Assembly (NCBI GenBank): GCA_000004985.1
Contig: GG738871.1
Strand: one strand, 5' to 3'
DNA from: Naegleria gruberi
Lineage: Eukaryota
DNA length: 64,000 nt
A program made the position numbers and the translations under genes. Within the stretch, counting starts at the first letter, position 1, and each line of letters starts with the position of its first letter. Under the pieces are notes generated by a model. It was not told where the DNA came from. It saw only the letters and a list, made by a program, of their open reading frames with translations, and made no database searches. Positions 13,848 through 64,000 of this stretch are shown here, piece by piece.

Positions 13848-14990
13848 ATGTTCAAAGGTTACTCTTCCATTCAAAATCACTTTCTCAAGGACGTTGATTC
13901 CTATCCACTCCAAACACAATACGATCCACAGGTACCATGGATCGTAACAGAAAAGATTCACGGATCAAACTTTAGTTTTGTAGTGAGTCTTGTAAAGGAT
14001 GATGCTGCATCAATTGATGATAATAATTTACAAATTCAGGTGGCAAAACGTACGGAAATTTTGGCAGATAATGATCCGTCTTATTATCCAAAGGCTGTTC
14101 GATCAGTTCGTGAATTATATGATGAAAAGATGAAATTGTTATTTAAGAATTTGGCTCTTGATTTGGAAAAGAAGAGAAATGTAAAACTTGTTAGTTTGAG
14201 TGTTTTTGGTGAATTATTTGGTGGTAATTATCCACATAAGGATGTAAAGAATGTTGGTGATAGAGCTCCGATTCAGAGACATGTGTATTATTGTACAGAT
14301 TTTGATTTTTATGTATTTGATATCTTTGTTTTTACAAAGAGTGATGATCCTAATGAAAAGAGATTGAATTATTTCCTTTCCTATGATGATATGGTGGAAC
14401 AAGTGAAAAAAACTGGTTTGGATTGTTATGCAAGAGAATTATTTAGAGGTAAATTGGAAGAATGCTTGAATTATGACAGTGTATTTGATTCTGTCATTCC
14501 TTCCACAATCTATGGTTTACCAGACATGCCTCATCACACCAATATTTGTGAAGGTATCATTATTAAGCCACTTATTGATATGAGGACTGATAAAAATGAT
14601 AGAATGGTTATCAAGAAGAAGAATGATAACTTTATGGAAAAAATTGGTCAAAAAGACAAGGTCAGAAAGGAAAGACTAGTAAAACAAAATACTGGTAAGA
14701 AATTCATTGATGATAAATCAGAACAAGCTATGAGTGATGTCCTCTCCTACATGAATGAAAATAGACTGGAAGGTAACATTTCAAAACTAGGTGACATTTT
14801 CAATTTCCCAAAAATTAGGGAAAGTTGCGTCTATTTACTTGCCCAAGATACTTTGAAGGACTATAGAGAGGAGAATTCTGAAGTGTGGGATCAACTTCCT
14901 AAGGAAGATCGTAAAGCAATCTCTGGTGCCTTACCTGCAATTGCTAAACGTTTTGTTGAGGAATATGTCAGTAAGAATAAACAAAATTAA
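13848..14990 (+). CDS. ATP-dependent RNA ligase of the Rnl2/REL-like nucleotidyltransferase family (380 aa).
   Basis: The motifs sit in the expected order. Motif I is TEKIHGSNF (the KxHGxN lysine-adenylate site typical of T4 Rnl2 and kinetoplastid REL1). The motif III region is VSLSVFGELFGG. Motif IV is ICEGIIIKP (EGxxxK). Motif V is VIKKKN. The C-terminal domain of about 150 aa is Lys-rich and unassigned. Confidence 0.65.
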   Translation: MFKGYSSIQNHFLKDVDSYPLQTQYDPQVPWIVTEKIHGSNFSFVVSLVKDDAASIDDNNLQIQVAKRTEILADNDPSYYPKAVRSVRELYDEKMKLLFKNLALDLEKKRNVKLVSLSVFGELFGGNYPHKDVKNVGDRAPIQRHVYYCTDFDFYVFDIFVFTKSDDPNEKRLNYFLSYDDMVEQVKKTGLDCYARELFRGKLEECLNYDSVFDSVIPSTIYGLPDMPHHTNICEGIIIKPLIDMRTDKNDRMVIKKKNDNFMEKIGQKDKVRKERLVKQNTGKKFIDDKSEQAMSDVLSYMNENRLEGNISKLGDIFNFPKIRESCVYLLAQDTLKDYREENSEVWDQLPKEDRKAISGALPAIAKRFVEEYVSKNKQN

Positions 14991-19146: not shown

Positions 19147-19862
19147 AATTTTTGATTTTTTTTGAATTTTTTAAATATTATTGAAAATTACTTTTTGGTG
19201 AGGGAGACCATTTATAGGAGTATTGGGTTTACAACACACTACCTAACAGCATAAATAGTTATCAGATATTCTATAATAACAAGATCTTTACATAACAAAA
19301 TTGGAAGAAATGCATTTCATCTCCAAAACTAAACCAAACTAAACATTAGAATCACTGATTGTAAACTTCTTACAGTATTTTCTTACATTCCAATTCCCAT
19401 TTAGAACGTTTGCTGTTCTTCCTTACGAAATCCTTGACGGCAAGACAAATCGCATCACAACTCGAGATAATCTAAAGAAATTCCCATCCGGTTTGGTTTT
19501 TCTAGAGTTCCTCAACGATAACCTCTCTCGTAATCAAATATTTGATTTTTCTTGAAGTTTTCCTTTCCCTCATACATTTACAAATAACCCCCAACACTAT
19601 CTTGCACATCATTTATCCATCACAACAACAATAATCACGCATTTTGTATTTTAGTCTTTGTTCCGTTGGAATCAGTGCAGGACTCAGTTTTCTGTTGATT
19701 TCTTGCTCATTTTTGTTAAGAAATAAGAGAATAGAACTTGCAAATTTCATTTGCTCAAACCAAAAACTAAAAAAAAAGTCATCGCAACAACAAGTTTGCG
19801 AATTCAAAATATTAAAACTCTCTCTAACGTGTTTTTGGCATTTTTCAATTAAACTCAGCAAA

Positions 19863-29157: not shown

Positions 29158-29381
29158 TTTTTTATTTATTATTATATTGATCAGTACTAATTTAAATTAT
29201 TAGTATTGTTATTGTTTGCTACAGGTTAAGTTGTTAATTAATGAAGAATTGGAGAGTGAGTCATTTGTGAGTGGCACAGAACAGTATGCAACCTTACAAT
29301 TGCAATCTTCCGAAGGAATATTAACTCCCTCTGGAATGTTTCGTTATTATACATTAAATTCTGTAAAGTCAGCATGACCAC

Positions 29382-41058: not shown

Positions 41059-41283
41059 TTGAATGTTGTAATAGAAAAAGAAAAAAATTAATTTTTTAAA
41101 TAGTATTTACAAAATATTAAATATTATTATTTAAATACGCCAATAATGGTTGGAAAAGTGAGGCAATGAATCAAAACACCAAATTCTGATCTTTGCAAGC
41201 CAAAAGAATCTTGAAAAAAATTACAACATTAATTCTTCCGCCATCACCTTCAAAATTTATTTATTAAAATTATAAACATCATC

Positions 41284-42411
41284 ATGATGAGAATATCAAT
41301 TATTAACAAACAGCAACAGCAACCCTACACCATCATCCTTCTCTGCTCAATTTTTATAATACTCTTCTCTTTTGCCAATTGTTCAAGAGATGAAAGTCTT
41401 GTTTCTTCTTCTTCGGAAGACAAGGTTGTTCATCCCTCACATTTAATGGCCCTTTCTTTTAGTTTAATAGCAGGAATATCGACTTTTATTGGAGGCTTTA
41501 TTATTATTTGCATGGGAAAACCATCGGATGGAAAGATTGGCTACATGATGGGATTTGCTAGTGGAGTCATGATGTTTGTGTCGTTTTTTCATCTCATTCC
41601 TGAGAGTATTGAGGATATTGGAGTGATACCTTCGATTATTTCATTCATTATTGGATCTGTCTTGTTTATTGGAATTAGTAAAGTGTTATTGGGTGATTCG
41701 GATCAAGAAGATTTCATATTGAAACATCATGAAGATGATAATTTGAATCAATCATCTTCAACACTTTCATTGGAAGCTAGAAAGGATTTGAAACAAAATG
41801 ATGGTAATAGTAGCAGAAGTAGTGGAGGAAATAGTAGCTCAGATGAGAGTGATTCTGATTCATTGAAAAAGAAGGAAGTAGTTGATGTGAAAAAACCAGC
41901 CAATGTTACAACCAATAGAAAGAGATTGTATCATACTGCTATTATTGTCACTTTGGGACTTTCATTACATAATCTTCCTGAAGGAATGGCTGTTTATACC
42001 AGTACTTTGACCACTTACAAATTAGGATTAATGATTGCTCTTGCTATTGGATTGCATAATGTTCCTGAAGGTATGGCAGTGGCTATTGCTGTCTATGCTG
42101 CAACCAATTCAATTTATCAATCACTCAAGTATAGTTTAATTTCTGGTTTGTGTGAACCACTTGGAGCTGCTCTCTTTGGTGCAATGATTTATCTTGGATT
42201 TTTACCTCATTACATTGTGTTTTACATGTTGGCTGGTTGTGGAGGTATTATGGTCATTATCTGTTTTACAGAGCTCATACCTACAAGTTTGGAATATTTG
42301 GAGAATGGTCATTCACACATGTCTTCTGTTTTGCATTGTATATTTGCAAATGCTTTGGGCATGCTTGTTATTTATTTGTGTAGCTTATTTATTGAACAAT
42401 ATGAACATTAA
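41284..42411 (+). CDS. ZIP-family (SLC39/ZupT-like) divalent metal transporter.
   Basis: There are eight predicted transmembrane helices. The metal-binding motifs GLSLHNLPEGMAVY and GLHNVPEGMAVAIA are duplicated, as in ZupT/Zip11. A Ser/Asp-rich cytoplasmic loop separates the two halves. Confidence 0.85.
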   Translation: MMRISIINKQQQQPYTIILLCSIFIILFSFANCSRDESLVSSSSEDKVVHPSHLMALSFSLIAGISTFIGGFIIICMGKPSDGKIGYMMGFASGVMMFVSFFHLIPESIEDIGVIPSIISFIIGSVLFIGISKVLLGDSDQEDFILKHHEDDNLNQSSSTLSLEARKDLKQNDGNSSRSSGGNSSSDESDSDSLKKKEVVDVKKPANVTTNRKRLYHTAIIVTLGLSLHNLPEGMAVYTSTLTTYKLGLMIALAIGLHNVPEGMAVAIAVYAATNSIYQSLKYSLISGLCEPLGAALFGAMIYLGFLPHYIVFYMLAGCGGIMVIICFTELIPTSLEYLENGHSHMSSVLHCIFANALGMLVIYLCSLFIEQYEH

Positions 42412-42584: not shown

Positions 42585-43939
42585 TCAATCATCCAATTGT
42601 TGTTCTGTTTGTAGCTGGTGAGGTTGCATCTCAAAAACAGCAGAATTAGGTGTAGGTATTGATTCACCAACACTTGCAGTTTCAATTTCTAGCGTATTGA
42701 TGGAGTTGATAGTTGATGGAGAATTTGTTAAATTCTCTTTCATTGATAATCTCTTCTTAGTGGCCATTGGATTTTCTGCGTTGGAATTGACATTCTTCAT
42801 TACGTTCTTTACCATCTTTTTCATTTCACTCAATGGACCAAATAATATACACAACCCAACAACAAAACACCAAGTTGCCAGGGCTTTACCAATCAATGAA
42901 ATGACTTGGAAATAAACAGAAGTATTGGAAACTTCACCAACAAATGATACCAACTCCATAATACATAAAAAGACAGCAATCAATGCAACTAGTGTAACAA
43001 TGATAATAATTCTTCTAATGGCCTTATTGGTAGTTTTCTGAAGAAAATCACCTGAATTTTCAGAGCTAGATTTCAAATGTCTAACAAGTTGAACAGTTGT
43101 CCAAATCATGTAACCTAAAGATGACAAGACACAACCAATGAAAATAACAGTTTCAAGAGAATAGAAGAAAATAATAGCTGCCTGACTTGATGGATTTGCT
43201 GTTTCACTCTTTGTTATTTGATCTACCAAAACTGTCACACAATAGCCAACAATGACACTTCCCAAAATAATAGGTGTTGTAAAAATCAATCCCAACAATA
43301 TTTTGTACATTCTATTCGAAATGTATCTCAATTTCATACTTGTTTCCGCACTATGTGAAATAATTCACACAAACCATTCAACAACCAATGAACTACTTAC
43401 AATATATAACCCACAAACAGGAATTGAACAACCAGCCACCAATCATTCAATGCCCATCCACAATAAATCAGTGCATTGATCACTCTGACATGAAGTGGCT
43501 TTTGAGCACTCACAAATGTATCAACAGGAAATGCTGCCATGTTCAATATTCTCAATCCAAACACTATTATCAAAATAACAACACTAGGCAATAGAATGGA
43601 GAATAGAATAACCTTGTTTCTAGAATAGGGGCTCTTTTGATTATTATTATCTGTTAACTCTTGTTGATTCTTTGTGTCCATTGATGAAGCTCTGCTATGC
43701 TTTCCTCCTCTTTTCTGTCTTGTAAAGCAACACAACAAGATTAGGATAACTGGTAAAAGAACCACAAACGAAACCATCTGAATGGCAGTCACAGAAATCT
43801 CACCAATAACCTGTGCCTGTGGTACCGAAGATGATGTTGTAGAATTGGTCGAAACCACTGCTGAACCAAGCAAATTAACAATCTCGCGTAATACATCACC
43901 AGTTGCCACATGTTGAGGCATGTTAATATAATGGGCCAT
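42585..43939 (-). CDS. Multi-pass membrane protein of unknown function. Exons are 43401..43939 and 42585..43350; the intron is 43351..43400 (50 nt).
   Basis: Two ORFs join across GTAAGT...TCACATAG in phase 2, giving ...FLFVGYI-F-AETSMKLRYISN... There are about eight hydrophobic helices and a Ser/Thr-rich C-terminal tail. Confidence 0.45.
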
Positions 43940-44417
43940 GATTACGACTGTTTTTTTATGAATGAACCAACATCAAATTTCATAACCACCATGAAAGAAA
44001 TTCTAAGAATCGAAGGGATTTTTAGGAGAAAATCTCAGCTGTCTGACAGCTACCACATACCCAATAGATCTTTCTCATTCTCTTTAGGCCAACTATGAAT
44101 GAATTTTGTTGGTGATGTTGTATTAAATATCTCCTGTTATTCAGTAATAATTTTAGCACCTTGCAAATTGGTAAGTGATTTGCCAGATTAAAGTGGGATG
44201 TATGTTAGTGTATGTATTGGTTGGTATGATGTCATTATAATTTGTCAATGCATGTCGTTAATTTGGTGTTTGTCATTCTGAGTTTGGTTTCGAATATAAA
44301 TATGTTATCGAGTCCACTACAGCTGTTTAGTTTACTACAACGTGAAGCTATCCTTGTTCTAATATGAGCACGATAATAATTCGTGAGAGTAATAATGGCC
44401 TAATACAGTTATTATAA

Positions 44418-45815
44418 TTAATCCATATAATCTGAACAATACGAAAGTACCATACTCTCTAGGGTGCCTCTATGTTTATCCTGGGGACTATGATTAGCAT
44501 GTTTTAAATAGTGTTTCAATGCTTTCCATTTCAAAACCAATTGAAAGAATGATTTTGCTTCCTTATCACTCCTTATTGGCTCCAAATATTCTAAATATGG
44601 TGTAATGTTTAACTCTGATTGAGCTCTCCAACTGTTCAATTGAGTATTGAAACTGAAACCCTTCTCTTGCTCGGTTGAGTTTGGCCAATAATAAACAACT
44701 ATTAGGAAATCATGTCGACCATACTGTTTGGTAAATTTTTCTAAGCATAACATTTCCCTCGATCCATTGGAGGTATATAAATTAATGAACATTACACATT
44801 GAGTATTCGATCCATGTTCTGGTTTGTAATCATCCATTGATATTCCAAAGTTTACCAAATATTTCGCATTATTCCTCTTGCATTTCACATTGATTGGTTT
44901 TCCTTCTGTGCCAAATAAGAGCTGTTTCACAACATTCTCATCATCTGGATTTTTAAAGTAAAAAAATGATTCTTCCTTTGGAATATTTGATGATGAATAA
45001 CTCTTTTCACAAACCTCAAAACATGAGTCAATTGACCTCCAAGTCTTGTTAAATATGAAAATCATTGCCATATCTCTCCAGTTCTTGGCATTGATAAATT
45101 CTAGTGAGAATGGTTGATACTTTTGTACATGCAGTACCAATCTCTTTGGTGACATTCGAAACCAAAACCAAGGATCTCCCAACCAATAATGATACACCAA
45201 TTTACAACTCGCTGAAAAATTACAACAATCACGAATGCTCAAAAAGGACAATATTATTGGAATGATATCAGAATTAATCAATCCCAATTCATGACTCAAT
45301 AGTGTTGAATGTGACTGATCAAATTGTTGTGCATATTCTTCATGTCTTTCATACCATCCTATTAAAATTCAATATTTGTTAATTATCATCAAAAGTTTCA
45401 TATATTTTCATATGTGTGCAATTGATAAATCAATCATGAAAAACAATTGATTAATAAACAAACCTCTCCTGTATTGAATAAATTCCATTGGGAGTGAAAA
45501 AACCCTCTCATCAATCTCCTCTTCTTCATCACTATCATCCGAATCATCATTTCTTTTTATTATTCTTTGTAAAATTGTTTTCCTTCTCGGAGGCTGTTGT
45601 TGATGATGATCACTACTACCAGAATAAGAGGCTGAATTAGAAGATGATGCAACGGCTCCTCTAGAAGATGAAGCTGTTGTTGTTGCTGATCGATTTCTTC
45701 TATTTATGAATGTTGAAAAGAGTGTTCTTCTGCGAAATGTTGGATTTTCATTGGTAGTGGAAGTACGACTGTTTGAATTTGAGGGTGGTGGAATGGAGCT
45801 AGGTTGTTGTCCCAT
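44418..45815 (-). CDS. F-box-like protein with an N-terminal myristoylation consensus and a Ser-rich acidic linker. Exons are 45464..45815 and 44418..45358; the intron is 45359..45463 (105 nt, GTTTGT donor).
   Basis: The N-terminus is MGQQPSS (Gly2, Ser6). A poly-Ser stretch and DDSDDSDEEEE follow. The spliced junction reads ...EFIQYRR-G-WYERHEEYAQQFDQSHSTLLSHELGLINSDIIPIILSFLSIRDCCNFSASCKLVYHYW, which is F-box-like. Confidence 0.45.
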
Positions 45816-49070: not shown

Positions 49071-52000
49071 TTATTTGAGGATAGTGTTGAGTTGCTCAGC
49101 AAGCTTTGAAGGGAAAAATCTCTTTGGTATTTCCAAAGAGTTGATCTTACCATGACCATCAAGCATATCAAATTCAAAAACATTAGCTTGGAGTGGCTTC
49201 TTGGATCCTAAATCAGTGAAATAGTTAAAGTCAACTAGAGGTTTGGATAAAACATTGTCCAGTGTTGGAATCTTCTTGCCAATGAGTTCTTCAATTTCGC
49301 GTTGAGAGAAGGTGGTATTTGAATACTCATCTGTTTCATAATTAGAATAGATATAGGCAATTTGTTGGACTGAAAGTTCTGGACAAATCTCTTGTCTTGT
49401 ACCTTCATCTTCAAGCAATTGCTTTTGAGCAATAACACAAATATCAGCTGCTTGTCTAGAAAGTGTAAAGTAAACTTGCAACTTTTCTTCATCAAAGTCC
49501 TCATTGTCATGGAATTGTTTTCTCAAAGATTGAACAACATTCTTAGAGTTGAACCAATTTTCAAGGAAGGCAACACTCATCTTAACTGAAAGACCCTTGG
49601 AGGCAGAAGCATCCTTGATAAAGTGATTGAATATAATTGAATCCAAACACATGGCAACATTTTCAAAAATGTGATTAACAACACGTTTGTCCAGCTTTTG
49701 TTGTTCAACACGTTGGTAGATTTCAGTAAGAAGTGAAATACACAATCTCATATCTGGACCACCATCTGTTGATTTGGATGAAGCTTGTTTTGGATTGAAC
49801 ACCGCCTTCACTAATCTGTCCTTCAAAAATTGGACAATCTTGGAACAGAGATTGAGATAGGCTCTAGCAAGAATATCAGTAAGAGCATCAGTAAATTCTT
49901 GCATGTCGGCAACATAAACTTCATCATCCTCAAGTACAGAGTATACTGGTGGTTCGGCCAAAATACGTTCTTCTTCCTTTGCCAAAATTGCTTGAACAGT
50001 GACACCTTCCATTGTTTCGAATGAGTGATGAACTTGATTTTCGTTTCCACTTGATTGATAGAGGTTCAAAAGTCTGTATAATACATTAACCCAATACATC
50101 ATCATCTCCTCATCTCTGGCATATCTATCTACAACGTAGGACAGAGCCTTGATAATATTTGTACAGAAGAATTTACTCGATTCTGGAGAGAACTTTAGAG
50201 TTGAGAGGAATAAAACCTTGGTTGGAGTTGGAACTTTAGAGCTTCCCAAATAGTCACTAGGTTGACTGTAGATGATTGCAGATTCAATAATGAACTTCTC
50301 TACATCAGAATTTTGCAATGATGATATTTGCTCTTTCAATTTCTTGGTTTCTTGTTCATTACCTGTCTTTGACTGTTTAAAATAATAATAATAAAAATAT
50401 TGGTTAGTAAGTTGAATAAAAATAAATAGAAAAGTGATAATTTGTTATCAGTTAGTTTTTAAGTTAGAAAAGTGTGAGTGTAAGTGTAAAAGTTAGAAAT
50501 GATATTTGCCTTTTGGTTTTCATCAAATTGTTTTTGAACTTTTTCAAGTCTTCTCTTGTCTTGCTCCAATTCATCAATTTGTTCTTCCAATTCGGTTATT
50601 CTGTTCTTTCCCTTCTTTAATTTGTTTTCCAATTCCGAGAATTTATCATCCATGTCCATAACTTTTTGGTTTAATTCCTCATTTTCTTCCTTCAACTTTT
50701 CAATTTCCTCCTCAAGTGCAAACTTTGACTTTTTATCCTCATTAACAGAATTCTATAATAATTAATAAGTTAGTACATAAAAATTCAAATTAAATAAAAA
50801 AACATAGTGAGAATTGTGGGTGATGTGTTAGTGTAAAAGTGTGTGTGATATTTGCCTTTTGTTGTTGTTCAATTTCTTCAATTCTTTCCTCAAGTTCTCT
50901 GATCAAAGTATCCTTCTCCTTGAGCTCATCTTCAGTATTCTTACTCTTTTCACTACTACCCTTCTTCAATTTTGCAATTTGATTACCAAGCTCATCAACT
51001 TCTTCTTGAAGTTGATTACGTTCTTTTTCTATCTTGGACAATTTAGAATCAACACTGTCTAGATCTTGTTCCAACTCTTCAATCTTTGAATCCTTTTGGC
51101 TATTGTCATCTTCCAACACTTGAAGTTGTCCAGAAAGCTTCTTGCATTCCATGGCTTGCTTTTTAGAATCTTCTTCAGCCTTTGCGACTTGTTGTCTGAG
51201 AGTTTCAAGTTCCTCAACCTTTGAATCAATAAGTTCATTCAATTTTATCACTTGGGTTTCACTCTCTGTAAGCTTCTTTTCTGTATCACCTAGTTTCTTT
51301 TCCGTTTCTCCAAGCTTCTTTTCGAGAGTTGTTTTTTGCTTCTTGACAATATCATCCATGGAAGCAGAATTCTTTGACAAACTTTCAATTTCTAAAATTT
51401 TTTCAGATAGGTCTTTTTCCTTTTCTTTGATCTTTTCTTCCAATTGCTGATTCTTGCTCTTGATAGTGGTAATCTCAATATCTAGATTCTTTCTCTCTTC
51501 TCTTAATGATTCGACAAGTTTGTTCAAATCCACTTCAGTTGACTATTTAAAGGTCATATGATATAAATTGTTAGTATGTTGTTTAAAATAAATGTGAAAA
51601 AAAAATGTGACATCACAGTTAGTACAAGTTAGTTCGCACCCAATAAAAAATCTAGCCTTTGGCTTTCATTCTTAAAGGGACAAATTGTTAGTTCTGGTTA
51701 GATACTTAAAGTTTTTGAAAAATATCCCGCACTCTTTGCAGAGATTGAGTGTGTAGTGTAAGATATGTACCTTTAGTTTTCTTGCCTCGGAATTAATATC
51801 AGAAACCTCATTAAATGTTTCTAAAACAGTAGAGAAGTGGCGACTAGCTTCTTGTTTCAGTTCCCCAATCGTGTTTTTCAAATGTGTAATTTCCTCAAGC
51901 AACAATTCTTCCACTTGCTTGCTAGCTTCTTTCAATTTCTTGCATTCTTCTTTCAAGTCTTCAACTTGTTGTTTGTAGCTCTCAATATCCTTATCTTTTT

Positions 52001-54957
52001 CTTCGCAGCTCTTCTCTATTTGTTTGGTTTCACTAATAGCAGCTTCTAGCTCTGAGGTAACATCTTCTACCTTCTTCTTATAAGATTCAAGGGATTGGTT
52101 GAGGTTCTCTAACTCTTGAGTAAGGTTTCTGTTCTTCTCTTCAACTTTTGAACATTTTTCTTGGTATTCTGAAAGCTTGTTTTCGATTTGAATAACAACT
52201 TCGTCAGTGTGTTGAGATGATTGCTTCTTGACATCTTCCACTCTTTCTTTAAGTTCAGAAATTTCTTTTTGGAGAGAATCTTGCATTTCTGCCTTGCTCT
52301 TTTCTGAGGATTGCCATTTTTGGGTGGCCTTTTCAACATCTTGTGAGTGTGCATTCTTTTCCTTCTTTAATTCATCCTTAAGACGTTCAACCTCATCAGT
52401 AACCTTCTTCAAATCTAATGCGAGTGCTTCCTTTCCTGATTTCAGCATTGACATCTTTGTTGAATATTCATTATCCTTGGAGAGGTATTCCTGTTTGAGG
52501 TTTTCCATTTGTTTCTTGAGAGATTCCTTTTCCTTGGTAGCAGCTTCCTCTTGTTTGTTGCGAGTTTCTATGGATTGTGTCAATTGAATGTTCAAAGCTG
52601 ATATCTTGGATGCCAAGTCATCTCTTTCCTTCTTGATATCTTGTAAATTTCTTTCCAATGATTCATTCTTTTCCTGTATCATAGTATTGGTATTTTGAAT
52701 TTGTACAATATTGGAGGTTAATACTTCGGATACAGCAGAAATCTCTTCCTTAACTTCATTTTCTAATGTTTGCTTAGCCTTCATAATACTCTCATCAGAA
52801 ATACCGTTTCTCATATTTTCAACAATATCAGAAAATGAGTCAGAGTGAGTAAGAATGCTTGAAAGCTCATCACTATTACCCAATTGGGTTGCTGTTTGAA
52901 GAAGGGTGTTTTGAATCTTAGTCTTGAGTGTTCTAAACTCCAAAAGACAAGAAAGAAGTAGCTCTCTATGCTTAGTTGCAGAAGATATTTCCTTACTTTG
53001 TTGAGAAACCAATTCAGCCAAACCCTTTCTTTCTTCCTTCAATCTATTAATGTCTGTTTCAAGTTCTTCAATTTCTACCTTTCTCTTTGTCTCTTTGGAA
53101 CTAAATTCTTTCTTTAGCTGATCAATCTCATTTTCATAACGAGTTTTGCTTTCTGACAAGTCTTTTTCATTGGTTACCTTAAATATATGAAGTTAGGAAT
53201 TATTCTATATCTCAATTATAAAAATGAACTTAACAGGGTGAGACTCTTTTCAGTTAGTTAGGTGTGAGTGTAATTAGTGTCAAGTGTACGTGTCGTGTGG
53301 GTTGATGTTTATACTTTACCTTTTGTGATTTCATATCTTCTTGAAGTTTTTCATTTTCTCTCTTCATTTTATCCATTTGCTTCTTGTCTGCAATGAGTTG
53401 TTCCTCATATTCCTTAGCTTGTTCTCTCATATTCTTGATTTCTTCTTCCAAATTTTGAACCTTTTCGTCATATTCGTATGAGAGGGATTGTTTTTGCTTT
53501 GAAGATGATGCACGACCATTTTCATTTTCTTCTTCAAGGTCCTTGATTCTATCCTTCAACTTTTTAATTTCTGTTTCATTCTTTTGAGCTTGCTTTTGCT
53601 TTAATTGAAGTTCAAAGAGCTTGCTATCAACTTCTTGTTGAGATTCCTGAGCCTTGTCTCTTTGTTTTATCAAATCTTCATTTTCTCTTTGGAGATTTTT
53701 AAGTTTTTCAACAGCTGAATCTCTTTCTTTTTGAACCTTTTTAAGCTATTAAATGTCAATATTCTCAATCTTTGTACACCAACTTACCAAATTAGTCTTG
53801 TCATTTTCTTTGAGAGTCTTGACTTGTTTCAAGAGCAATTTTACCTTTCTCTTGAGGTGATTAATTTGTCTTTCAAATTCAGCAGTATCTACATGTGATG
53901 AAACTTGAGCAGATTCATCAGTTTCAGTGTGCTGATTATTTTCTTCATCCTCATCTTCGGTTCCCTTTTCAACTTGTTCATCCTCTTCTTCTGGTTCTTC
54001 ATCGTGGTGTTCCTCAGGATGTTCTTCTTCGTCCTTTATTTGCTCTTCGATATCTCTTTCAATATCCTCTTCATTTACTTCAACTTCAGGTTCATGATGA
54101 TCCTCTTCGTCATAATTATGTTCCTCATGATCATTATAGTCGTGCTCTTCGTGTTCTTCCTCATCCTTATCCTCACCAATATCCTACAAATTGATTGTTA
54201 ACAATTACTACAATAATTAAACATACTTGATTTGTTCCTTCATCTTCATCGACTTCATCATTACCTCCAGTATAAGTACTAACAGCAGTAAAATCATCAT
54301 CACTTAATTTTGTTACAATCATACAAGTTCTAGTAGAATACTTACTTTGGATTTTGATCCTTTAAACATTTAGAATTGATAACAAGTTTCAATTTGGCCT
54401 TGCTACTATCCTTTGTTGGCATGTCTATTTCCTTTGTGGATGTCTTTTCAGAATCTTCATCTACAAACAATGCCAAATCCAAAGTTTCCTTCACAAGTGT
54501 ATTTGTTTTTCCATTCTTTCCTTTCTCTTCCAATGTGATTTGAAGATCTTTCTTTTGGAATTTACCCTTTTTAAAATAGAGAGTTCCATTGAATTTAAAT
54601 GTTCTATTCCAAATAATACGGGTACCTTCAATCTTGTTAAATTCGGTTTCACCCTTTCTCTTTTTTCCTCTTTTCCAAAATATCTATTATTGTGATTGTA
54701 TCATAAAACGTTGATGATATTATAATGATGATGACAGCGTTGTTGATGTTTGATAAGGAATTTAATGATGATGGGTATTATCATAGTGATGATATTTAAA
54801 TATTATGATGAAAATAATAAACATACAGCATAGGTACATTCATCCTTCTTCTTTTCCTTCACTTCGGTCAAGTGATCAATAGAAAGGTTAAATTGAAACT
54901 TGAAAGCCTCCCTATTCGTAACCTGTTGGGCTACTTTGCTTTGTAACTTTTTAAACA
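49071..54957 (-). CDS. Very large multi-exon gene. It encodes an NT-C2 domain, a poly-acidic region, a coiled coil of about 1,100 aa and a C-terminal DIL (dilute/myosin-V-tail-like) domain. At least nine introns.
   Basis: The start MFKKLQSKVAQQVTNREAFKFQFNLSIDHLTEV... and the next exon IFWKRGKKRKGETEFNKIEGTRIIWNRTFKFNGTLYFKK... fit the EHBP1/EEIG1-type N-terminal C2 pattern. An acidic exon follows (DIGEDKDEEEHEEHDYNDHEEH...). Four long coiled-coil ORF blocks come next: 53254..53673, 51672..53159, 50790..51533 and 50459..50695. The last ORF, 49071..50339, has DIL-domain character. Individual intron borders are only partly resolved. Confidence 0.5.
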
Positions 54958-55357
54958 TGATTAAATACTACTAAACACTATGGAGCAAGGTAGATTTCAA
55001 TCTGATAATAAATTAATGAATGATGTACAGGAGAGATTGATAATCTTCTACTACCGTTGGTTGCTAATTAATTTTTTTTAAATATTTTTTAAAAATGCAA
55101 AATTATCCACCAAGAATAGCCAAGTGACCAATTGCTTCTGGTAGACAAAATGCAACGGTCATCATGCGTACTGTGAAATTTAAAAAATCAAGCGCCAAAT
55201 GATTCTCTTTGCCCAATTGACAGTTTACTTTTTTATTCTGTACAGTTATTTATTATGGATGTTGTGAGGTTTCATTAAGAATTAATACCGCTTTTTATCA
55301 TTTAAATTTGTAATGTTAATGATATCATTGAATATTCGTCTAGACTCTGTTATTGAG

Positions 55358-57070
55358 TTATTTTTCAACTAATGGTATTAAGAAATGGTTTGGTATTTTA
55401 CAATCGAAATAGGTTTCAGTCATTCTGATTTTTCTGAGTTTTTCAAACTTTTCTCGTTTAGGAAAAAAGCAAAATCCGTTCTGTTTAGCAGCAATTTCGC
55501 TTATTGTTTCATCTTTACGATGCAATGGAGCATGATATAATAAAAATCCATTCTTTTTAACCAATTCCATTACAATATTTCGATTTTTTAAAATTAAAAA
55601 ATTCATTTCTTCTCTTCCAATTTTCACATTTGGATTACGGACTTTCCATAGCCTTTCGTCATTGGTCAACCTATCTGAAGCTCCAAAAAAAGACCCTTTA
55701 TATTTGACTGCTGCCTCAACAACCTCAATATCGTTCTTTAGTTCGCTTGCCTCAATAAGAACACTTTTTAAAATTGAATCATTTTTCAATAATCGAATAA
55801 TGAATTGCTTGTCTCTCTTCAGAGTTGGATCTAAGAGTCTCATAAAATTCTGACAATTATTGTTATTTTCCAAAAGGGATTCAATAAATTCTTTGTCATG
55901 TTGTAACTCATTAGAGGCAAATAGGAAAGCCTTACACTCTTTCTTTACAGCATGTGTTACGATAGATTTGTCATTAATCAACACATCAGATGCAGCTTCC
56001 AAAGCTGAAGGAAAATTTGATATGGCTTCCCATACAATTTCATAATCATTTCTGTAAATATAGGGACAATAACAAAGCACGCCCCCTGATTTTCTCACAG
56101 TTTGCAAAACCAAATCTCTGTCAATACTATCCTCTTTCATCTTTGGAAAAATATACTCTATTCCATTGACGGCCAATTGTAACATCTCTCTAACAAATAG
56201 ATCATCATTCTTTAACTCTTCAGATGCATACATCATTGCACTTCCATGGATTAATATTGATCTTTTTACAATTTCTCTATGATTTCGGAATTCAGGTTTG
56301 ATAAATTCAATAATATTTGCAAATAAAGAACATTCCAAAATAAAGTCAACATCTTGCTTCAGATCATCGGTTGCATATTTAAATTGATATCGATTTTTTT
56401 TCACACAATTCAAAACCAATTCTCTATTGGATTTTAGCTCATCAGGGAATGATTCTAGACATGAGAAATGTTTCAAAATTTCAATGTCATTATGAAATTC
56501 TTTGGGTAAAAGGTGTTTTAGATCGGTCGAATTCATTCTTGCTATCATCTCTTTATGCGTGAAAAACAATCTATCACTTGCCAATTCATCTAAATAGGGT
56601 AGTAATGTCTCTCCGATTTTTACTTGGTAAGGCTCAATATTAGAAAGGACGAATTCTCTATTATTTCTCAATTCTTTTGACGCAAATTGAAACATGTTTG
56701 GAAAAATCATACAACAATCTTTCACAATTTGTGGATTGTTTTTAACATGAAAAGGTGAATCTTCACATAGCTGAAAATAATATTCCAATCTGAGGTTATA
56801 TTCTAAATACCAATAAAAAAACTTTTGTGCTATTGGATTTTTCTTGCCATTAGAAATTACAAACTCAAAAACTTCTTTATCATCAGTAAATTCGAGAGGC
56901 AAAAATTTGAATCTGTCTGGGTTCTCAAAATGTAAACGTCTGTTTTCGAGATAAAGAAGAAATCCTTTTTGTTGAGTTTGAAATTTTCGGATTAAAAGTT
57001 TGACTTGATGAGAAATGCAATGATCAAAATCTATCAGATAGAGAGTGGTGTGATGTGTGCTTCCAGACAT
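55358..57070 (-). CDS. DUF4116 repeat protein (570 aa).
   Basis: Units about 35 aa long of the form ELKNDxEfVlxAVKxNGxxLxYASxEL recur, for example ELRNNREFVLSNI, ELKSNRELVLNCVKKN, FRNHREIVKRSILIHGSAMMYASEELKNDDLFVREML and ELKNDIEVVEAAVKYKG. This is characteristic of the DUF4116 family. Confidence 0.55.
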   Translation of the reverse strand: MSGSTHHTTLYLIDFDHCISHQVKLLIRKFQTQQKGFLLYLENRRLHFENPDRFKFLPLEFTDDKEVFEFVISNGKKNPIAQKFFYWYLEYNLRLEYYFQLCEDSPFHVKNNPQIVKDCCMIFPNMFQFASKELRNNREFVLSNIEPYQVKIGETLLPYLDELASDRLFFTHKEMIARMNSTDLKHLLPKEFHNDIEILKHFSCLESFPDELKSNRELVLNCVKKNRYQFKYATDDLKQDVDFILECSLFANIIEFIKPEFRNHREIVKRSILIHGSAMMYASEELKNDDLFVREMLQLAVNGIEYIFPKMKEDSIDRDLVLQTVRKSGGVLCYCPYIYRNDYEIVWEAISNFPSALEAASDVLINDKSIVTHAVKKECKAFLFASNELQHDKEFIESLLENNNNCQNFMRLLDPTLKRDKQFIIRLLKNDSILKSVLIEASELKNDIEVVEAAVKYKGSFFGASDRLTNDERLWKVRNPNVKIGREEMNFLILKNRNIVMELVKKNGFLLYHAPLHRKDETISEIAAKQNGFCFFPKREKFEKLRKIRMTETYFDCKIPNHFLIPLVEK

Positions 57071-57183: not shown

Positions 57184-58807
57184 TTAGTAAAAGGAAATAT
57201 TCATCTTGGCAAGTTGCCTTGGTGCAATATAGGAATAGTAAATCCACTTTTCTAAGAATTGAGGTTTTTTGTGTCTATACTTTACAATGAAAGGATGTTG
57301 GAGAAGACTTGTCGCACTTGGTCTTTCTTTTCTATTGACTCTTAATGTAGAATAAATAAAATCTTTGAACTCGTCAGATGCACCTTCGAGAGGGAATGGA
57401 GCATCAGTTGATTTTTCCAAAAAGTTTAACATGTCCCATATTGAGGCGTTAGCACTTAAAACAAATGGAAATACTCCTAGAAATGCTTCAGCAATAGTTA
57501 AACCAAATGACCAAATATCTGAATCGTAAGAATGTGGTTGACCTCTAATTCTCTCGATCGACATGTATGCATGGGTTCCACAGTATGTTTCAAATTTACA
57601 GGTTTGTTGGAGATTTTGCAAGTACTTTTGTGATCTTTCTAGACCAGCCATTCCAAAGTCTGCAATGCAAACCTCTCCTGTATTGTGGACCAAAACATTG
57701 GCAGGTTTCTTTTAACCATTATTAATCATCAAGATTCAATAAACTTACAATATCTCGATGAACAATTTTCTTTACAGTGTGCAAATATTCCAACCCTAAA
57801 AGCAATTGTTCACAAATCCTCGAAAGAATACTCTCTGGTATTCTGCCTGAAACAGCTAAAACATCTTCCAAAGATCCACAATCTTAAACAGTTACAAATA
57901 GAGCTAGTTCAATTACATACCCATAAATTTCAGTATCATTAAAATACAGCCTTGTCTATAATAGGCGTCATATAGAGTCATTACATAGGGACAGTCGCTG
58001 AAATAAACAAGTAAATGAATCATTGACATTTTCAAAAACTTACTTGTTATACAGTGCTTTAAATTCTGAGACAATTAACTTGGGTTTTTGATCGTTTAAA
58101 TCTACAGTAATTTTCTTCATTGCATAAATTTGTTTCGTCTTTTTATGCATTACTTTATAGACTGTTGAGGAGGCTCCCTTTCCTAATTTACAAACTTCCT
58201 CAAGATCCTCATAAATCATGTGTTCAGTATTTACAAAAGACATGGATGATGAAACGTTATTAGAAGGTGATGAAGAGGTAGAATAATCCATGCTAGTCCT
58301 AAATTGTTCTGATGCAATACTTCCACCACTCGATGGAGATGACTGCAAAAAGGGAGTATGCAATTTTGAAATGGTAGATTGATGAATACCATCTTGACCA
58401 ATCACAATTTGATCTCCAAATCTAAATGTTCCATCATTTCTATTAGTTTATAGTTTTTGATCCAATTCATGATGATATTGTGACGATTAAATAATAATAT
58501 TTAATAATTCAAAATACTATTATATACTGTACATTTTAACTGCTTCATCCACATATTTCTCCTCAGCAATTTTAATTATTTCCGTTGGAATAGTCGTATC
58601 TGGTTGTTCCGATGGTGTTGTTACATTTCCCAATATTAAATTTGTAGGTTTGTTTTTTCTAGGCTTTTTTGATTTGTTACTTGATGATGGTGAAGATGAA
58701 ATAGATGGTGAGGAAACATTCGATGAACTCGAGTAATCTTCATCATCCAAATTCATTCCACTCAATGAGGTTGTTATATTGGTGAGGTTGCAACCTTCTT
58801 CTCCCAT
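57184..58807 (-). CDS. MAP kinase kinase (MEK/STE7 family) with an N-terminal MAPK-docking motif. There are at least five exons: 58529-58807 (approx.), 58044-58428 (approx.), 57921..57997, 57749..57882 and 57184..57708.
   Basis: The spliced product is ...LGKGASSTVYKVMHKKTKQIYAMKKI...[101 protein letters not shown]...YMSIERIRGQPHSYDSDIWSFGLT. It is collinear with human MEK1 (NSPYIVGFYGAF...MEHMDGGSLDQV...HRDVKPSNILV...CDFG...[22 protein letters not shown]). Introns 57998..58043, 57883..57920 and 57709..57748 are all GT-AG and phase-consistent. The N-terminal exon carries the D-site KKPRKNKPTNLILG. Confidence 0.75.
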
Positions 58808-59638
58808 TATTTCTTCTCAATTTTGTTGTTGTTGTTGTGGTGGAATTTGTTGTGGTTGTATTGCTGTTGGCTAAGAAGAGAAAAAAATTCGTGATAATGA
58901 TGACTACAGCAACCTCTTGATGGTGATCAAAGAACTAATTCAAGCAAAGAAGAAGTAGTGAAGAAAAATAGTAGTACTGCTCGGATGGAGAGAATGATGT
59001 GTTTCTGATTATCTCTATGGTGAGAATTTTTTTGATTTAAAGAAGAGACTTGATCTTTGTCAACTATCATCGGTTACATTCCGTTCTTTCCTTTCTATTG
59101 GTTGGCATTACGTTTTATTTTACTCTCAATTAATATTACAAATTTTAAATTTAATTATCATGTGATGAAATTTTCAGTGCATACAATCATGGTTGCATTT
59201 GGATTGATTTCAAGTCATTACGGTATTTAAAGCCTTAAATTTGAAAAATCGAAAAGTCCATGCAAGGTTTTAATGCTGAACTTGGAGGTTGCCATCTTTG
59301 AAGAAAAGTTGGAGAGACACTTTCACTTACAGCACTTTAATGATAAGACAATGTTTTGTAACAGCACTATATCAAGCCAAACAGGTAATAATGTCTATTT
59401 GGAATTGATTTTGTTGCATTTTACCGTTGACAGTTAGTTGATTGAATTTTGCATTGTTGTGTTCTTTGAACAAAACACCGTTCCCATCAATCACTTAATA
59501 GTACCAAAATTGACATTGATTTCACGATTGTGGAGCTACTAAGGTTTGACATGACGAGGGAATTGAACAGTTACCCGAACAGCATACAATTTCAGTGTCT
59601 GGCTTTTAACAAACACAAAAAACAAAAATCAAAAAAAC
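58808..59638. promoter_or_regulatory. Long divergent intergenic region between the MAP2K gene (minus strand) and the second cysteine-rich surface protein gene (plus strand).
   Basis: An 830-bp non-coding spacer between two start codons. No verified elements. Confidence 0.25.
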
Positions 59639-62600
59639 ATGGTTACTGGAGGCAATCTTTCAGTATCTTGCTTTAAACAAGATGTAAAATCAGTTAGAGG
59701 CCTCATTGTCCTTCTCTTGTTGATTCTCTGTTTGACAACAATTGAGAAATGTTGTGGATATTACTACACAATGAATACTGTTGGTACCTTCACTTCTGGA
59801 ACCACCTTGTATCAAATGGACAAGTCCAAATTCTTCGCTAACAGATTCTACGTAGCAACAAGTGGAGGTCTTCAGTATTTCACTGTATCAAGTGGTGTGG
59901 CAAATCCAAGTAATTCTTATGTGTATAGTGGTGGGTTTCAAACTACCAGTATGGCAAATGTTGTTGTCAGAAGTACATCATCAAGTAAAGATGATGTTTT
60001 TTCTGGTACCATTAACACCTCCACTTGGAGGTATGGTTCAATAGCCAGTTCAACCACTACTGGTAATTCACTCACCAGTTGTGGCGTTATTGTTGCTGGT
60101 GTAAAACTCGATGCAAGCTCTACAACTTTTTCTGTGATTGGCAATGGTGTTGTGGGTACATTAACAATGACAACAGGTGGTAGTGCATCTTGTTCTGCAG
60201 TTACCTCATTTACAGGAGTTTCTGGCACAAGTACCACGCCATCTACTGATGGCACAGGTAGCGCAGCTACTGTTTACTCTAGTGGTACTCATGACATTAC
60301 CAAAAATTCAACATCTGGTGTAAGTATGAGAAAATTCAATTAATTAGATCTAACAACTGGCAGGTTTATTATTTTACTGAGGATTCAAAGATTAGAAAGG
60401 TTGTTTCAACTACTATCACAACTCTGGTAGGAGGAACTACTGGTACAGTGACAGATGGTACTCTCTCCTCTGCTACAGTTAAAAATCCAAGTTTCATGTC
60501 CATCTTGGGTGCAGGTGTAAGTTTTATTGCATTGTTATGATATATTAAACTGTTAACAGCTTGTATTTTCGGATACTGGTAGTAATAGAATTAGAGTTTT
60601 GGATACAGCCAATGAAGAAGTTGTTACTATTGCTGGTGGTGGCTCAACTACCCCATCAGGTACTGCTTCACTATCTGGTGCAGCAACAGGTTTTTCTTTA
60701 ACTAGCCCAAGAGGCATTTATGTGGACACTGATGACAGTATTTATTTTGTTGAAGGAATTTATGTTAGAAAGCTTGTCTATTCTTGTGAAGCAAATGAAA
60801 TTTATCAAGCAGGCTCATTCCCACCATGTGCTTGTAATACTACTGCTGGTTATGTGAGATCTGGAACTTCTTGCGTACCTACCTGTTCCAATTGTAATGT
60901 CAATCAAACATGTACTGGTCCAGAAACTTGTTCTTGTAAGAGTGGATATTCAGGAACAGATTGTTCTGCTTTTACCTGTTTTGGTGTAGCTCAAGATTCT
61001 ACATCTGTTTGTAATTCTAAAGGATATTGTGTTGCACCTGACACGTGTATATGTAGTGATACCTCCACTTTCTTTGGGTCAAATTGTAATGTGACTTATT
61101 GTAATTCTATTCCATCAACGAGTGGTAGTGTTTGTTCAGGACATGGAAGTTGTACTGATTATAATACTTGTACTTGTAGTGATACCAATTCATGGACAGG
61201 ATCTGATTGTGGAACACCTGTATGTGCAGTTGTGAGTGGAGGTGTTTGTTCTGGAAGAGGTAGTTGTACAGCTCCAAATATTTGCACTTGTAATGAACCA
61301 TCAAAATATGGTGGATCTTCATGTGAAATTCCAAAATGTAATGGAACACTTCAAGGCAATTCTGGTGTTTGCAATGGAAGAGGTTCTTGTATTGATGTTG
61401 ATACTTGTCAATGCACTGTTCCAACCTCTTGGGGTGGTTCATTCTGTGAAAAACCATACTGCTCTGGAATTTTACAAGGTGCAGCTGGTGTTTGTTCAAA
61501 TAGAGGAGTTTGTTCATCTCCTGATTCTTGTGTTTGTAATGAACAAACAAAGTATGGTGGTTCAAATTGTCAACTTGTCAAATGTGGAGGTTATTTGGAA
61601 ACAGACTCTGCTGTTTGTAACAAGAATGGTTCATGTATTGCTGTTGATACTTGTTCCTGTAATTCAAATTATGGTGGTTCAGATTGTCAATATCCAAAGT
61701 GTAATGGCATTGCTTCGAATAGTGGTAGTGTTTGTAATTCACAAGGATCATGTGTTGCACCAAATGTTTGTGTCTGTAATTCAAATTATGCTGGACCATT
61801 ATGCGAATATCCAAAATGTAATGGCGTAGCTTCCAATGATGCAAGTGTTTGCAATTCGAATGGAACTTGTACTGGTGTTAATACTTGTGTTTGTAATGTT
61901 AACTATACAGGATCATATTGTCAATATCCAAAATGTAATGGAATATCTTCCAATGATGCAAGTGTTTGTAATAACAAAGGTGGTAATTGTATTGCACCAA
62001 ATGTTTGTTCATGTAATTCAAGTTATACTGGTCAATTCTGTCAATTCCCAAAGTGTAATGGTATTGGATCCAATGATGCAAGTGTTTGTAATGCAAATGG
62101 TACTTGTATTGGAATTAATGTTTGTTCATGCAATTCAAATTATGCTGGTCCATATTGTCAATATCCAAAATGTAATGGTATTGCTTCAAATAGTGGTAGT
62201 GTTTGTAATTCACAAGGATCATGTGTTGCACCAAATGTTTGCGCCTGTAATTCAAATTATGCTGGTACATATTGTGATAAACCAAGATGTGGAACCTTTT
62301 ATAAGGGAGATGCTTCTGTTTGTAATTCGAGAGGTAGTTGTGATGCTGTTGATAGTTGTACTTGTAGTGATACATCTTCTTGGGGTGGTAATTTGTGTCA
62401 ATATCCAAAATGTAATGGTGTTCTTTCAAATATTGGAACTGTTTGTAGCAGTAGAGGTACTTGTCAATCTCCAAACAATTGTTCATGCACTGATCCAAAT
62501 TCATATGGTGGTTCATATTGTGAAAAAGCAAAATGTTATGGAATTCTTCAAGGAGATTCAAATGTTTGCAGTGGACATGGTACTTGTAGTGGTGTGAATC

Positions 62601-64000
62601 AATGTTCATGCAGTGCTGGATATGGAGGTGAACAATGTCAATATCCAAAATGTTTCAATATTTTGAGTAATGAAACAACAGTTTGTAACAATAGAAACGG
62701 TACTTGTACTGCACCTGACACTTGTTCATGTAATAATGGATGGACTGGAAGCAAGTGTGATGTTGCCATTTGTTTTTCAATTCTCTCCAATTCAACAAGT
62801 GTTTGTTCAAACAAGAGAGGTAATTGTGTCACACCAGATAATTGTGTTTGTAAAAGTCAATATTCAGGTTCTCAATGTGAATATACCACTTGTTCTGGAA
62901 TAAGATCAGATCAACATCGACAGTATGTTATGGAAATGGTCAATGTATTGATTATTTACTTGTAATTGTACAACTGGTTATGGACCATCCAATGTATGTC
63001 AATATCCAATTTGTGGTGGTTATTTAGCAAATGATACCAGAGTTTGTAACAATTCAAGAGGTGTTTGTTCCAAACCAAATACATGTAGACCATTAGATCC
63101 CGTATGTTATGGTAAAGCTCAGAATAATTCAATGGTTTGCAGTGGAAATGGAGCATGTGTTGATTGGGATTATTGTGAATGTAAAACTGGTTTCAATGGA
63201 AATGAATGTCAAAATTGGGAATGTTATGGAAAGAATTATACCAACTCAAATGTTTGTAACAATAGAAATGGTACCTGTTCATCTGTGAATAATTGTGTTT
63301 GCAACAGTGGATGGTATGGAAATGAATGTACAGTTCCAATGTGTAATGGAATTCTTGCTAATTCATCTCTCATTTGTAACAATAGAAATGGTACCTGCTC
63401 CAAACCAGGTGCATGTCAATGTAATACTGGATACACAGGACCTGATTGCTCCATTCCAATTTGTTATGGAAAATTAGGCAAGTGACACAAGTAATGTTTG
63501 TTCAGGAAGAGCAGAATGTATTGGTTATAACAAGTGTAATTGTGACACTTCCAAGTATAGTGGTTCACAATGTGAATATTTCAAATGTTTTGGTATTCCA
63601 TCAAATGATGCTTCAGTTTGCAGCAGAAACGGAACATGCTCTGGAGTGAATCAATGTTCTTGTAATTATGGTTATGGTTCTTCAAATTGTGACATTTTCA
63701 CATGTTCAAACGTTCTTGCCACCGATTCGAGTGTTTGCACTGGAAAGGGTGTATGTTATGGAATTGACAAGTGTTCATGTGATTCAGGATATTTTGGATC
63801 AAATTGTGAAATTATCTCCTGTTATGGAATTCCAAAGTCCAACAATACTGTATGTGGAGGAGTTGGTGAATGTTCACAACTTGATACATGTGTTTGTGGA
63901 AGCAATTATAGAGGATCAATGTGTGAATTATCTTACACCTCTTCATCTCAAGCAACACTTCAATTCAATAATACGAATGAATATGTGAATGAACAATTCA
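59639..64000 (+). CDS. Paralogue of the 30410..36107 cysteine-rich surface protein: signal peptide, NHL-like N-terminal repeats and EGF/tenascin-like modules. Exons are 59639..60319 and 60364..60516, and a third runs from 60560 to beyond the window end. The frame is disrupted at least three times between 62880 and 63490. It is 3'-partial. It may be a decaying paralogue, or the disruptions may be sequence errors.
   Basis: Introns 60320..60363 and 60517..60559 (GTAAGT...AG) are frame-consistent. The product carries ...LYFSDTGSNRIRVLDTANEE...IYFVEGIYVRKLVYSC... and about 20 six-Cys modules. DNA from 62990 onward is nearly identical to 34290 onward of the first gene. Relative to that paralogue it has single-base indels near 62925, 62950 and 63478, each followed by a stop in the main frame. 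Confidence 0.45.
61290..62660. repeat. Tandem array of units about 120 bp long, encoding six-cysteine modules in the second surface-protein gene.
   Basis: Units beginning ccaaaatgtaatgg... or ccaaagtgtaatgg... recur at about 120-bp spacing. The antisense ORFs here are artefacts. Confidence 0.65.

Follow-up and report, generated by a model that had tools for sequence, protein, structure and literature searches.

Four long introns of one coiled-coil gene in the amoeba Naegleria gruberi carry a tandem A/C-rich motif and clusters of the word CTAAC, and they most likely represent splicing modules that act in cis and are kept by selection. Their motif would be new, in a lineage from which no such module has been described. 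The gene lies on the minus strand of a 64-kb stretch of contig GG738871.1 (assembly GCA_000004985.1), hereafter the window, with a G+C content of 30-38%. The introns are called A, D, B and C in transcript order, and the donors of B and C start with GC. They were compared with those of a collinear orthologue on an ENA metagenome contig (L001; 6282 bp, 37% G+C), so that all comparisons between species concern two species and one orthologue. In the text and in Table 1, positions of motifs are counted from the donor and a slash marks a splice site.

Four long introns in a coiled-coil gene

The open frames on the minus strand between 49800 and 53800 are rich in lysine and glutamate and are broken by short non-coding stretches. 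A preliminary description had placed three introns in these gaps. The introns exist, but the intervals assigned to them were the gaps between open reading frames (ORFs) initiated by ATG, GTG or TTG, and a fourth intron, D, had been missed. Once A, D, B and C are removed, a single open frame runs through to the stop codon. The encoded protein contains, in this order, an NT-C2 domain (Pfam, E 4e-19), an acidic linker, a coiled coil of ~1000 amino acids (aa) and a C-terminal DIL domain (Pfam, E 5e-14). A word-seeded search of 5.8 billion proteins with the C-terminal part as query returned one homologue only (P0001), and JGI metagenome contigs scanned for further orthologues gave no match. NT-C2, a long coiled coil and DIL, combined without a myosin motor, may represent a lineage-restricted family, or one that is poorly predicted owing to its GC introns. 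Where a gene predictor does not allow GC donors, this gene of 1668 aa would come out split or truncated.

Judged from their sequence, A, D, B and C are real U2-type spliceosomal introns of this one gene. All four are in phase 0, as are seven of the eight introns of the gene. Their donors start with GC in two cases, with GTACAT in one and with GTAAAG in one, and none of the four has G at +5; the donor context of intron D reads AAG/GTACATATCTTACACTACACAC. Donor strength was judged by the rules of pairing with U1. The identical donors of B and C were compared with CAG/GTAAGTAT, which is fully complementary to canonical U1 at its 5' end. They agree at 8 of 11 positions between -3 and +8, with matches at -2, -1, +1, +3, +4 and +6 to +8, but with A instead of G at +5.

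The GC-AG reading of B and C is strongly supported by the sequence. Only GC-AG boundaries keep the reading frame in these two introns, and both contain in-frame stops. According to the preliminary description, no GT occurs before the next exon. This holds for intron C, but intron B has GT at +53 and at +80. From our reading of the sequence, the first leads to a frameshift and the second lies beyond an in-frame TAA, so that neither can yield an in-frame product. The identification of the segments as introns, two of them with GC donors, agrees with the orthologue, in which GC and the exon ends ...QK are the same despite saturated synonymous sites. Splicing of the GC-AG type is in itself not new and makes up a minor class in many eukaryotes (PMC2490688).

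Ordinary introns of the window were collected for comparison by the presence of open frames on both sides and of stops inside the candidate, followed by hand checks, which gave ~18 introns. Sixteen of these are 36-69 nucleotides (nt) long, and the other two have 143 and 186 nt. GTAAGT or GTATGT forms the start of every one of them, and CTAAC was found in 1 of 18. AG is strongly depleted within introns: the 186-nt intron at 20190-20375 (+) contains none against 7.2 expected, and none was found in intron 1 of the coiled-coil gene or in several short introns. This suggests a lineage-wide "first AG" habit, by which splicing would mostly take the first AG beyond the donor region as its 3' splice site. 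Exclusion of AG, or depletion of G, was rejected as a special trait of B and C, as other long introns (20190-20375 and intron 1) are AG-free too and G-poor tracts are common just before ORF starts.

Shared motifs and their conservation

The strings quoted in the preliminary description were all found. CAAAAG precedes introns A, B and C alike, and A/C-rich cores follow their donors, which read AAG/GCAAATATCA in two introns and AAG/GTAAAGTAT in one; GTACTAAC and TTACTAAC stand upstream of the acceptors TTATAG and TTAAACAG. The A/C-rich core is built of tandem hexamers, e.g. TTACAC TTACAC TCACAC, and can be described by the pattern TACAC-N(1-3)-ACAC. This pattern occurs six times in the window, both strands counted, and all six occurrences are in A, D, B and C, on the coding strand and 11-48 nt downstream of the donors. 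In 100 dinucleotide shuffles, 0.84 occurrences were expected per window and the maximum was 5.

CTAAC is ~40-fold enriched in the same introns, with 14 occurrences in 610 nt (23/kb vs 0.59/kb in the window), and only introns C, D and A contain at least three CTAAC within 120 nt anywhere in the 64 kb. The branch-site word GTACTAAC lies 15 nt before the acceptor AG in B, and TTACTAAC ~30 nt before the acceptor in C, where its CTAAC is the probable branch site; both words are followed by a T/A-rich tract.

The plan common to the set consists of an exon end (C)AAAAG or CTAAAG, TACAC repeats and CTAAC words. Introns B, C and D further share the donor form G(T/C)A(A/C)ATATC, and at their 3' ends a module in which (A)TCAC is combined with a T-rich run and ACTAAC. 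A repeat scan of 50300-53400 revealed a 33-nt repeat (D4) of the B and C donor regions with 82% identity, which extends 17 nt into the exon, and blocks of 16 nt at 94% (B/C) and 27 nt at 85% (A/C). The flank common to all four introns is only the generic AAG/...AG. The earlier suggestion of a related intron family is thus upheld by the shared donor form, the TACAC-N-ACAC motif, the CTAAC clusters and the 3' module, and the shared and conserved architecture supports treating the four as a family; common descent by module duplication is possible.

It had also been proposed that the core could be a dispersed element, which is not supported: no further copies were found in the 64-kb window or in ~50 kb of relatives (L001 and the N. 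fowleri and Willaertia loci). In 22 kb each, TACAC-N(1-3)-ACAC was found once in N. fowleri and not in Willaertia. A profile of the B/C 5' module matched its four training sequences only, with the next best match at E ~1. A near-motif, TACACTAACAT, is present in an A/C-rich tract at 44160-44260 (-), between the ORFs 44418-45299 and 43397-43939 (both on the minus strand); this tract is probably intergenic or untranslated region rather than intronic. A Mer1-type enhancer (AYACCCUY) was considered and rejected, as it gave a partial match in one species only.

In the orthologue on L001, the positions of all four introns are identical to those in the window, and the tblastn alignment breaks exactly at ...QK/ in both species. 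The two genes are deeply diverged: 4-fold synonymous sites are 30% identical (n=158) and thus saturated, the coiled-coil exons have 32-48% protein identity, and the short introns 2-4 align no better than shuffled sequences (z-scores -1.0 to 0.8). The alignments of the long introns gave z-scores of 4.7 (A), 3.8 (D), 5.0 (B) and 5.1 (C), and local alignments reached 9.3 for C and 8.3 for D. Introns B and C surpass the intervening exon 8 in conservation, with a gapped identity of 0.75-0.76 vs 53% (nucleotides) and 32% (amino acids), and the 0.76 of intron B compares with 0.63 in shuffles. The sequence of the four long introns is hence conserved above the neutral level. This conservation is not coding, since in-frame read-through of the introns yields non-synonymous differences between the species and early stops. 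As each intron is nearer to its orthologue than to its paralogues, recent gene conversion is not indicated.

Conservation extends to the individual elements. The 11-mer TACACTAACAC is found at +21 of intron B in both species, and the four matches to TACAC-N(1-3)-ACAC on L001 are all within introns A, B and C. The blocks TGCAAAGA(G/A)TGC and CTAACTGT(T)GATGTCAC of intron D are conserved as well, and internal AG is absent from B and C in both species. GC was found as the start of B and C in both species, which indicates that the GC donors are old and kept; the preliminary description had explained them by a drift from GT to GC after duplication, and this explanation is not supported. At the donor of intron C, L001 contains a 12-nt tandem copy of the exon end and donor (positions 4538-4561; CAAAAG/GCAAAT CAAAAG/GCAATT), so that two GC donors stand in frame at a distance of 12 nt. 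The copy may represent an alternative 5' splice site, whose use would add ANQK.

The gene's own intron 1 served as a control. It is 143 nt long in the window and G-poor, with a consensus donor, no motif and no CTAAC, and only 44 nt long in L001 (447-490), where similarity is confined to the last ~15 nt. Ordinary introns here change freely, as this difference in length shows, and intron length alone does not explain the elements, since the long intron 1 has a consensus donor and lacks the motif.

Table 1. Positions of the gene, its introns and exons, and the sequence elements within them. Positions refer to the window unless L001 is named.
Feature	Position	Strand	Description
Host gene	49071-54958	minus	ATG 54958, stop 49071; 9 exons, 8 introns, 1668 aa (spliced model is one ORF)
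Intron 1	54684-54826	minus	143 nt
Introns 2-4			43, 43 and 42 nt
Intron A (intron 5)	53178-53319	minus	142 nt, phase 0, AAG/GTAAAGTAT...TTTAAG; no G at +5
Intron D (intron 6)	51543-51770	minus	228 nt, phase 0, AAG/GTACATATC...AAATAG
Intron B (intron 7)	50753-50855	minus	103 nt, phase 0, putative GC-AG, AAG/GCAAATATCA...TTATAG; no internal AG
Intron C (intron 8)	50373-50509	minus	137 nt, phase 0, putative GC-AG, AAG/GCAAATATCA...AAACAG; no internal GT or AG; 2% G
Exon 6			1407 nt, symmetric (phase 0-0), from spliced model
Exon 7	50856-51542	minus	687 nt, 229 aa, phase 0-0
Exon 8	50510-50752	minus	243 nt, 81 aa, phase 0-0; both flanking introns GC
Donor site of B	50847-50858	minus	AAG/GCAAATATC; mismatches at -3, +2, +5
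Donor site of C	50501-50512	minus	AAG/GCAAATATC, identical to B donor
TACAC-N-ACAC, intron A (two)	53262-53288	minus	TACACTTGACAC at +32, TACACTCACAC at +48
TACAC-N-ACAC, intron D	51749-51760	minus	TACACTACACAC at +11
TACAC-N-ACAC, intron B	50825-50835	minus	TACACTAACAC at +21; perfect ACTAAC then AC
TACAC-N-ACAC, intron C (two, overlapping)	50472-50488	minus	TACACTTACAC at +22, TACACTCACAC at +28; TTACAC TTACAC TCACAC
CTAAC, intron A (three)	53192-53261	minus	CCTAACTAACTG at 53261-53253; 53196-92 close to acceptor
CTAAC, intron D (five)	51570-51701	minus	
CTAAC, intron B (distal)	50769-50773	minus	inside GTACTAAC, 15 nt before acceptor AG
CTAAC, intron C (four)	50403-50496	minus	50496-92, 50467-63, 50455-51, 50407-03 (in TTACTAAC)
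L001 intron A	1775-1907		starts GTAACGTAC
L001 intron D	3303-3516		starts GTACATATC, as in window
L001 intron B	4183-4294		starts GCAAATATC (GC)
L001 intron C	4538/4550-4678		tandem GC donors, starts GCAAATCAAAAG/GCAATTATC

Possible splicing-control modules and alternative explanations

On balance, and with some reserve, we favor the view that the four introns are a special class maintained by selection, in which cis-acting splicing-control modules are arranged around weak donors. Each module would consist of a non-consensus donor, a tandem (U)UACAC element at 11-48 nt and several CUAAC words, CUAAC being the putative optimal branch-site word. The A/C-rich repeat and the extra CUAAC words may recruit factors near the weak donor. 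One candidate is an RNA-binding protein specific for A/C-rich sequence; CUAAC could be bound by SF1/BBP or by a STAR-type KH protein, and the U2 small nuclear RNA itself is a further candidate. TACACTAACAC would extend the complementarity to the GUGUAGUA region of U2, and it holds an optimal SF1/BBP site, ACUAAC. Donor positions +6 to +8 are proposed to pair with nucleotides 1-3 of U1, and ACUAACAC with the GUGUAGU region of U2; the conserved TAT at +6 to +8 probably compensates for the mismatch at +5 (and at +2 in B and C). The motif would lie at about the donor-to-branch distance expected in ordinary 40-nt introns, and U1 and U2 could pair across a normal distance despite an acceptor located 70-200 nt further. 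A bound factor may help or hinder the assembly of U1 and U2, and its recruitment may offset the weak donors or set their efficiency. As all four introns are in phase 0 around the symmetric exons 6-8, the modules could also control the skipping of exons in frame, or tune an intron retention that drops the DIL domain. Intron boundaries, GC donors, the exclusivity of the motif and its conservation above neutral are read from the sequence itself, whereas the partners and the mode of action, constitutive or regulated, are inferred.

Several points weigh against this interpretation. The donors are not dramatically weak when -2, -1 and +6 to +8 are counted, as their 8 of 11 matches equal those of ordinary donors. 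Intron D of L001 is without an exact TACAC-N(1-3)-ACAC, and the absence of AG from B and C is unspecific, AG being depleted in introns generally. The conservation of the motifs comes from one comparison of two species, and splicing itself, together with any regulation, is something we infer from genomic sequence.

A sharper form of this interpretation, and one compatible with it, is that regulated alternative splicing is the main purpose, with exons 6-8 as cassettes or with B and C retained to give a truncated protein without DIL. A regulator would then bind the conserved intronic elements, as in metazoan splicing maps. This appears plausible, though on the whole unlikely. With exons of 1407, 687 and 243 nt between four phase-0 introns, any skip would stay in frame, as would the joining of the B donor to the C acceptor, and the two GC donors in the tandem copy of L001 are in frame as well. 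Introns more conserved than the flanking exon are a signature for regulated exons (PMC1500816), GC donors are enriched in alternatively spliced genes, with that of let-2 needed for regulation (PMC2490688), and N. gruberi is known to show exon skipping as well as retained introns (PMC6142364). However, phase is weak evidence in a gene with seven of eight introns in phase 0, exon skipping is rare in non-animal eukaryotes (PMC6142364), and both the isoforms and the regulator are hypothetical. The similarity of the introns could otherwise be the product of history and not of function, as the decaying relic of one exon-plus-intron unit that was duplicated internally, or of an old intron-generating mobile element, which we consider improbable. 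The donors of B and C are identical over 12 nt and similar for 17 nt more into the exon, the repeat blocks of B/C and A/C and the 3' module common to C and D point in the same direction, and AAG precedes all four introns (CAAAAG three of them). But a relic would have decayed: neutral sites are saturated and ordinary introns unalignable, yet both species have preserved the motifs together with their offsets and the types of donor, and the greater closeness of the introns to their orthologues speaks against recent conversion. The exon-plus-intron duplication put forward in the preliminary description was not borne out either, as exon 8 is no more like the tail of exon 7 than other coiled-coil windows are, and only ~17 nt of exon are similar beside the B and C donors. 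Duplication may explain the origin of the elements, but not their maintenance. For a mobile element, no extra copies were found in ~114 kb (window, L001, L002 and L003), and none of the four inverted-repeat pairs in 50300-53400 flanks any of the four introns. Within this DNA, an introner or mobile-element family was accordingly rejected, with no dispersed copies found, no flanking inverted repeats and positions shared with the orthologue.

Outside splicing, the conserved blocks could serve as an intron-hosted small RNA, an antisense transcript or a DNA element such as an internal enhancer; we give this only a slim chance. Some internal blocks of intron D are conserved, a hairpin is predicted in both species at corresponding places within it, and G-poor tracts rich in A, C and T are also found just upstream of several ORF starts. 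The hairpins (window 51633-51684 (-), L001 ~3397-3437) are unrelated in sequence. In L001, the stem is a continuous run of 15 pairs, G-U included, and the whole intron folds with a z-score of -2.4, but intron D of the window folds no better than shuffles (z -0.7). A conserved structure, with only 9 consensus pairs and 1 compensatory change, was set aside. A small nucleolar RNA in intron D was rejected: although TGATGTCAC is similar to box C, a box D and an Rfam match were both lacking, and a pair of box C and box D was not found by eye. Rfam gave nothing at the gathering threshold across the window, nor at E<=1 over 50300-53400, and no transfer RNAs were found either. Nearly G-free RNA cannot form stable structure, and the strand specificity of the motifs and their fixed offsets from the donors point to recognition in the pre-mRNA. 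The GC donors themselves could be unreal, with other canonical or U12-type sites in use, with the segments retained, or with GC as a sequencing error, but this we regard as hardly credible. The boundaries of B and C are predicted from genomic sequence, and ATATC at +5 to +9 slightly resembles the U12-type donor ATATCCTT. Against this stand the lack of any GT in C, the frameshift or preceding stop at the GTs of B, the in-frame stops within both introns and the same GC seen independently in the assembly of the second species. The U12-type or AT-AC class (donor /RTATCCTT) was rejected, as both frame and consensus fail: AT-AC ends are in frame for intron C of the window only, neither for B nor for L001, the base that follows ATATC, sixth in the putative ATATCC, varies (A, A, T, T, G), and the branch site TCCTTAAC is absent.

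Taken further, this free-living heterolobosean, a member of Discoba, may have a dedicated programme of factor-driven alternative splicing for a cargo-adaptor-like coiled-coil gene, in which conserved weak GC donors and a UACAC/CUAAC repeat code would choose in-frame cassette exons or the attachment of DIL. We consider this doubtful. If true, it would place a metazoan-style combinatorial splicing logic (a STAR protein with a partner) outside animals, plants and fungi, and a branch-site-like landing pad for U2 or SF1 beside the donor, at the spacing of a ~40-nt intron, would also be new. Little is known of splicing control in Discoba, and Naegleria is among the few intron-bearing members with a complete spliceosome. 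A literature search for GC-AG introns or A/C-rich intron elements in Naegleria found nothing relevant. If functional, the modules would offer this lineage a first candidate for a cis-code that sets the strength of splice sites or controls isoforms, as well as a bait sequence for finding the factor.

Surrounding genes and likeness to known splicing systems

Several other genes were recognized in the window. An intronless gene for the spliceosomal helicase DDX23/PRP28 (27145-29157 (-)) has its best named relatives in N. fowleri (71% identity) and Willaertia magna (59%), which places the window among Naegleria-like Heterolobosea. A T4 Rnl2-type RNA ligase gene with RNA_ligase and T4_Rnl2_C domains (13848-14990 (+)) is near PRP28 both here and in N. 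fowleri (L002:18397-19753), which represents local synteny, and a 570-aa ORF at 55358-57070 (-) has 7 matched DUF4116 repeat stretches; a Willaertia DUF4116 gene is also near PRP28. Two large genes with EGF_2/teneurin-type EGF repeats are located at 31178-36107 (+) and 59639-62965 (+), the second with two introns of 43-44 nt at 60320-60363 and 60517-60559. A protein-kinase-like gene at 57184-58100 (-), with its HRDI/KPAN motif split by an intron, has three introns of ~38-46 nt of the ordinary type. Several ORF starts are immediately preceded by tracts of 70-160 nt with almost no G in the sense strand, e.g. at 19555-19645 (+), 29188-29261 (-), 41207-41288 (+) and 58819-58889 (-), which may be G-poor leaders or promoters.

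The four introns recall several known systems. As in introners, several introns share sequence after a similar exon context (AAG/G), but here the positions are common to two deeply diverged species, the similarity is limited to short motifs and no dispersed copies were found. In mammals, hnRNP L reportedly binds intronic CA-repeat or CA-rich splicing enhancers or silencers (Hui et al. 2003, 2005). The A/C-rich clusters with ACAC and TACA words tens of nt past a weak donor are similar, whereas here a specific hexamer repeat overlaps branch-site-like words. The introns of Trichomonas and diplomonads have an extended branch-site motif, ACTAACACACAG, fused to the 3' splice site (PMC13548475, PMC3916229). 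ACTAACAC, a branch site extended by AC, is present in intron B of both species, but there its distance to the 5' splice site is 21-31 nt, the next AG comes only after a further 70 nt or more, and a second branch word is located near the acceptor.

The closest parallels are from nematodes. A conserved GC donor is required for the regulated splicing of intron 10 of C. elegans let-2, and in human, nematode and Arabidopsis, genes with alternative splicing are enriched in GC donors (PMC2490688). As in let-2, a GC donor is kept across species in a gene for a structural protein, most of the other positions of the donor can pair with U1, and there is conserved sequence nearby in the intron. The present case differs in that it concerns a heterolobosean amoeba and two adjacent introns with identical GC donors, in that +5 is A and not the usual compensating G, and in that alternative isoforms are hypothetical. 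In intron 1A of nematode unc-60 and in let-2, ASD-2, which is a STAR protein, and SUP-12, which is an RRM protein, cooperate in binding to CUAAC repeats by a UGUGUG stretch and so control intron excision (PMC3469465), and CTAACC is among the conserved intronic words that flank alternative exons in nematodes (PMC1500816). Although the repeat of the Naegleria introns is A/C-rich (UACAC) instead of UGUGUG, the organism is not an animal and the binding partner is hypothetical, the likeness to the ASD-2/SUP-12 system lies in several CUAAC words beside a short tandem repeat, near a splice site, which are conserved while the rest of the sequence drifts.

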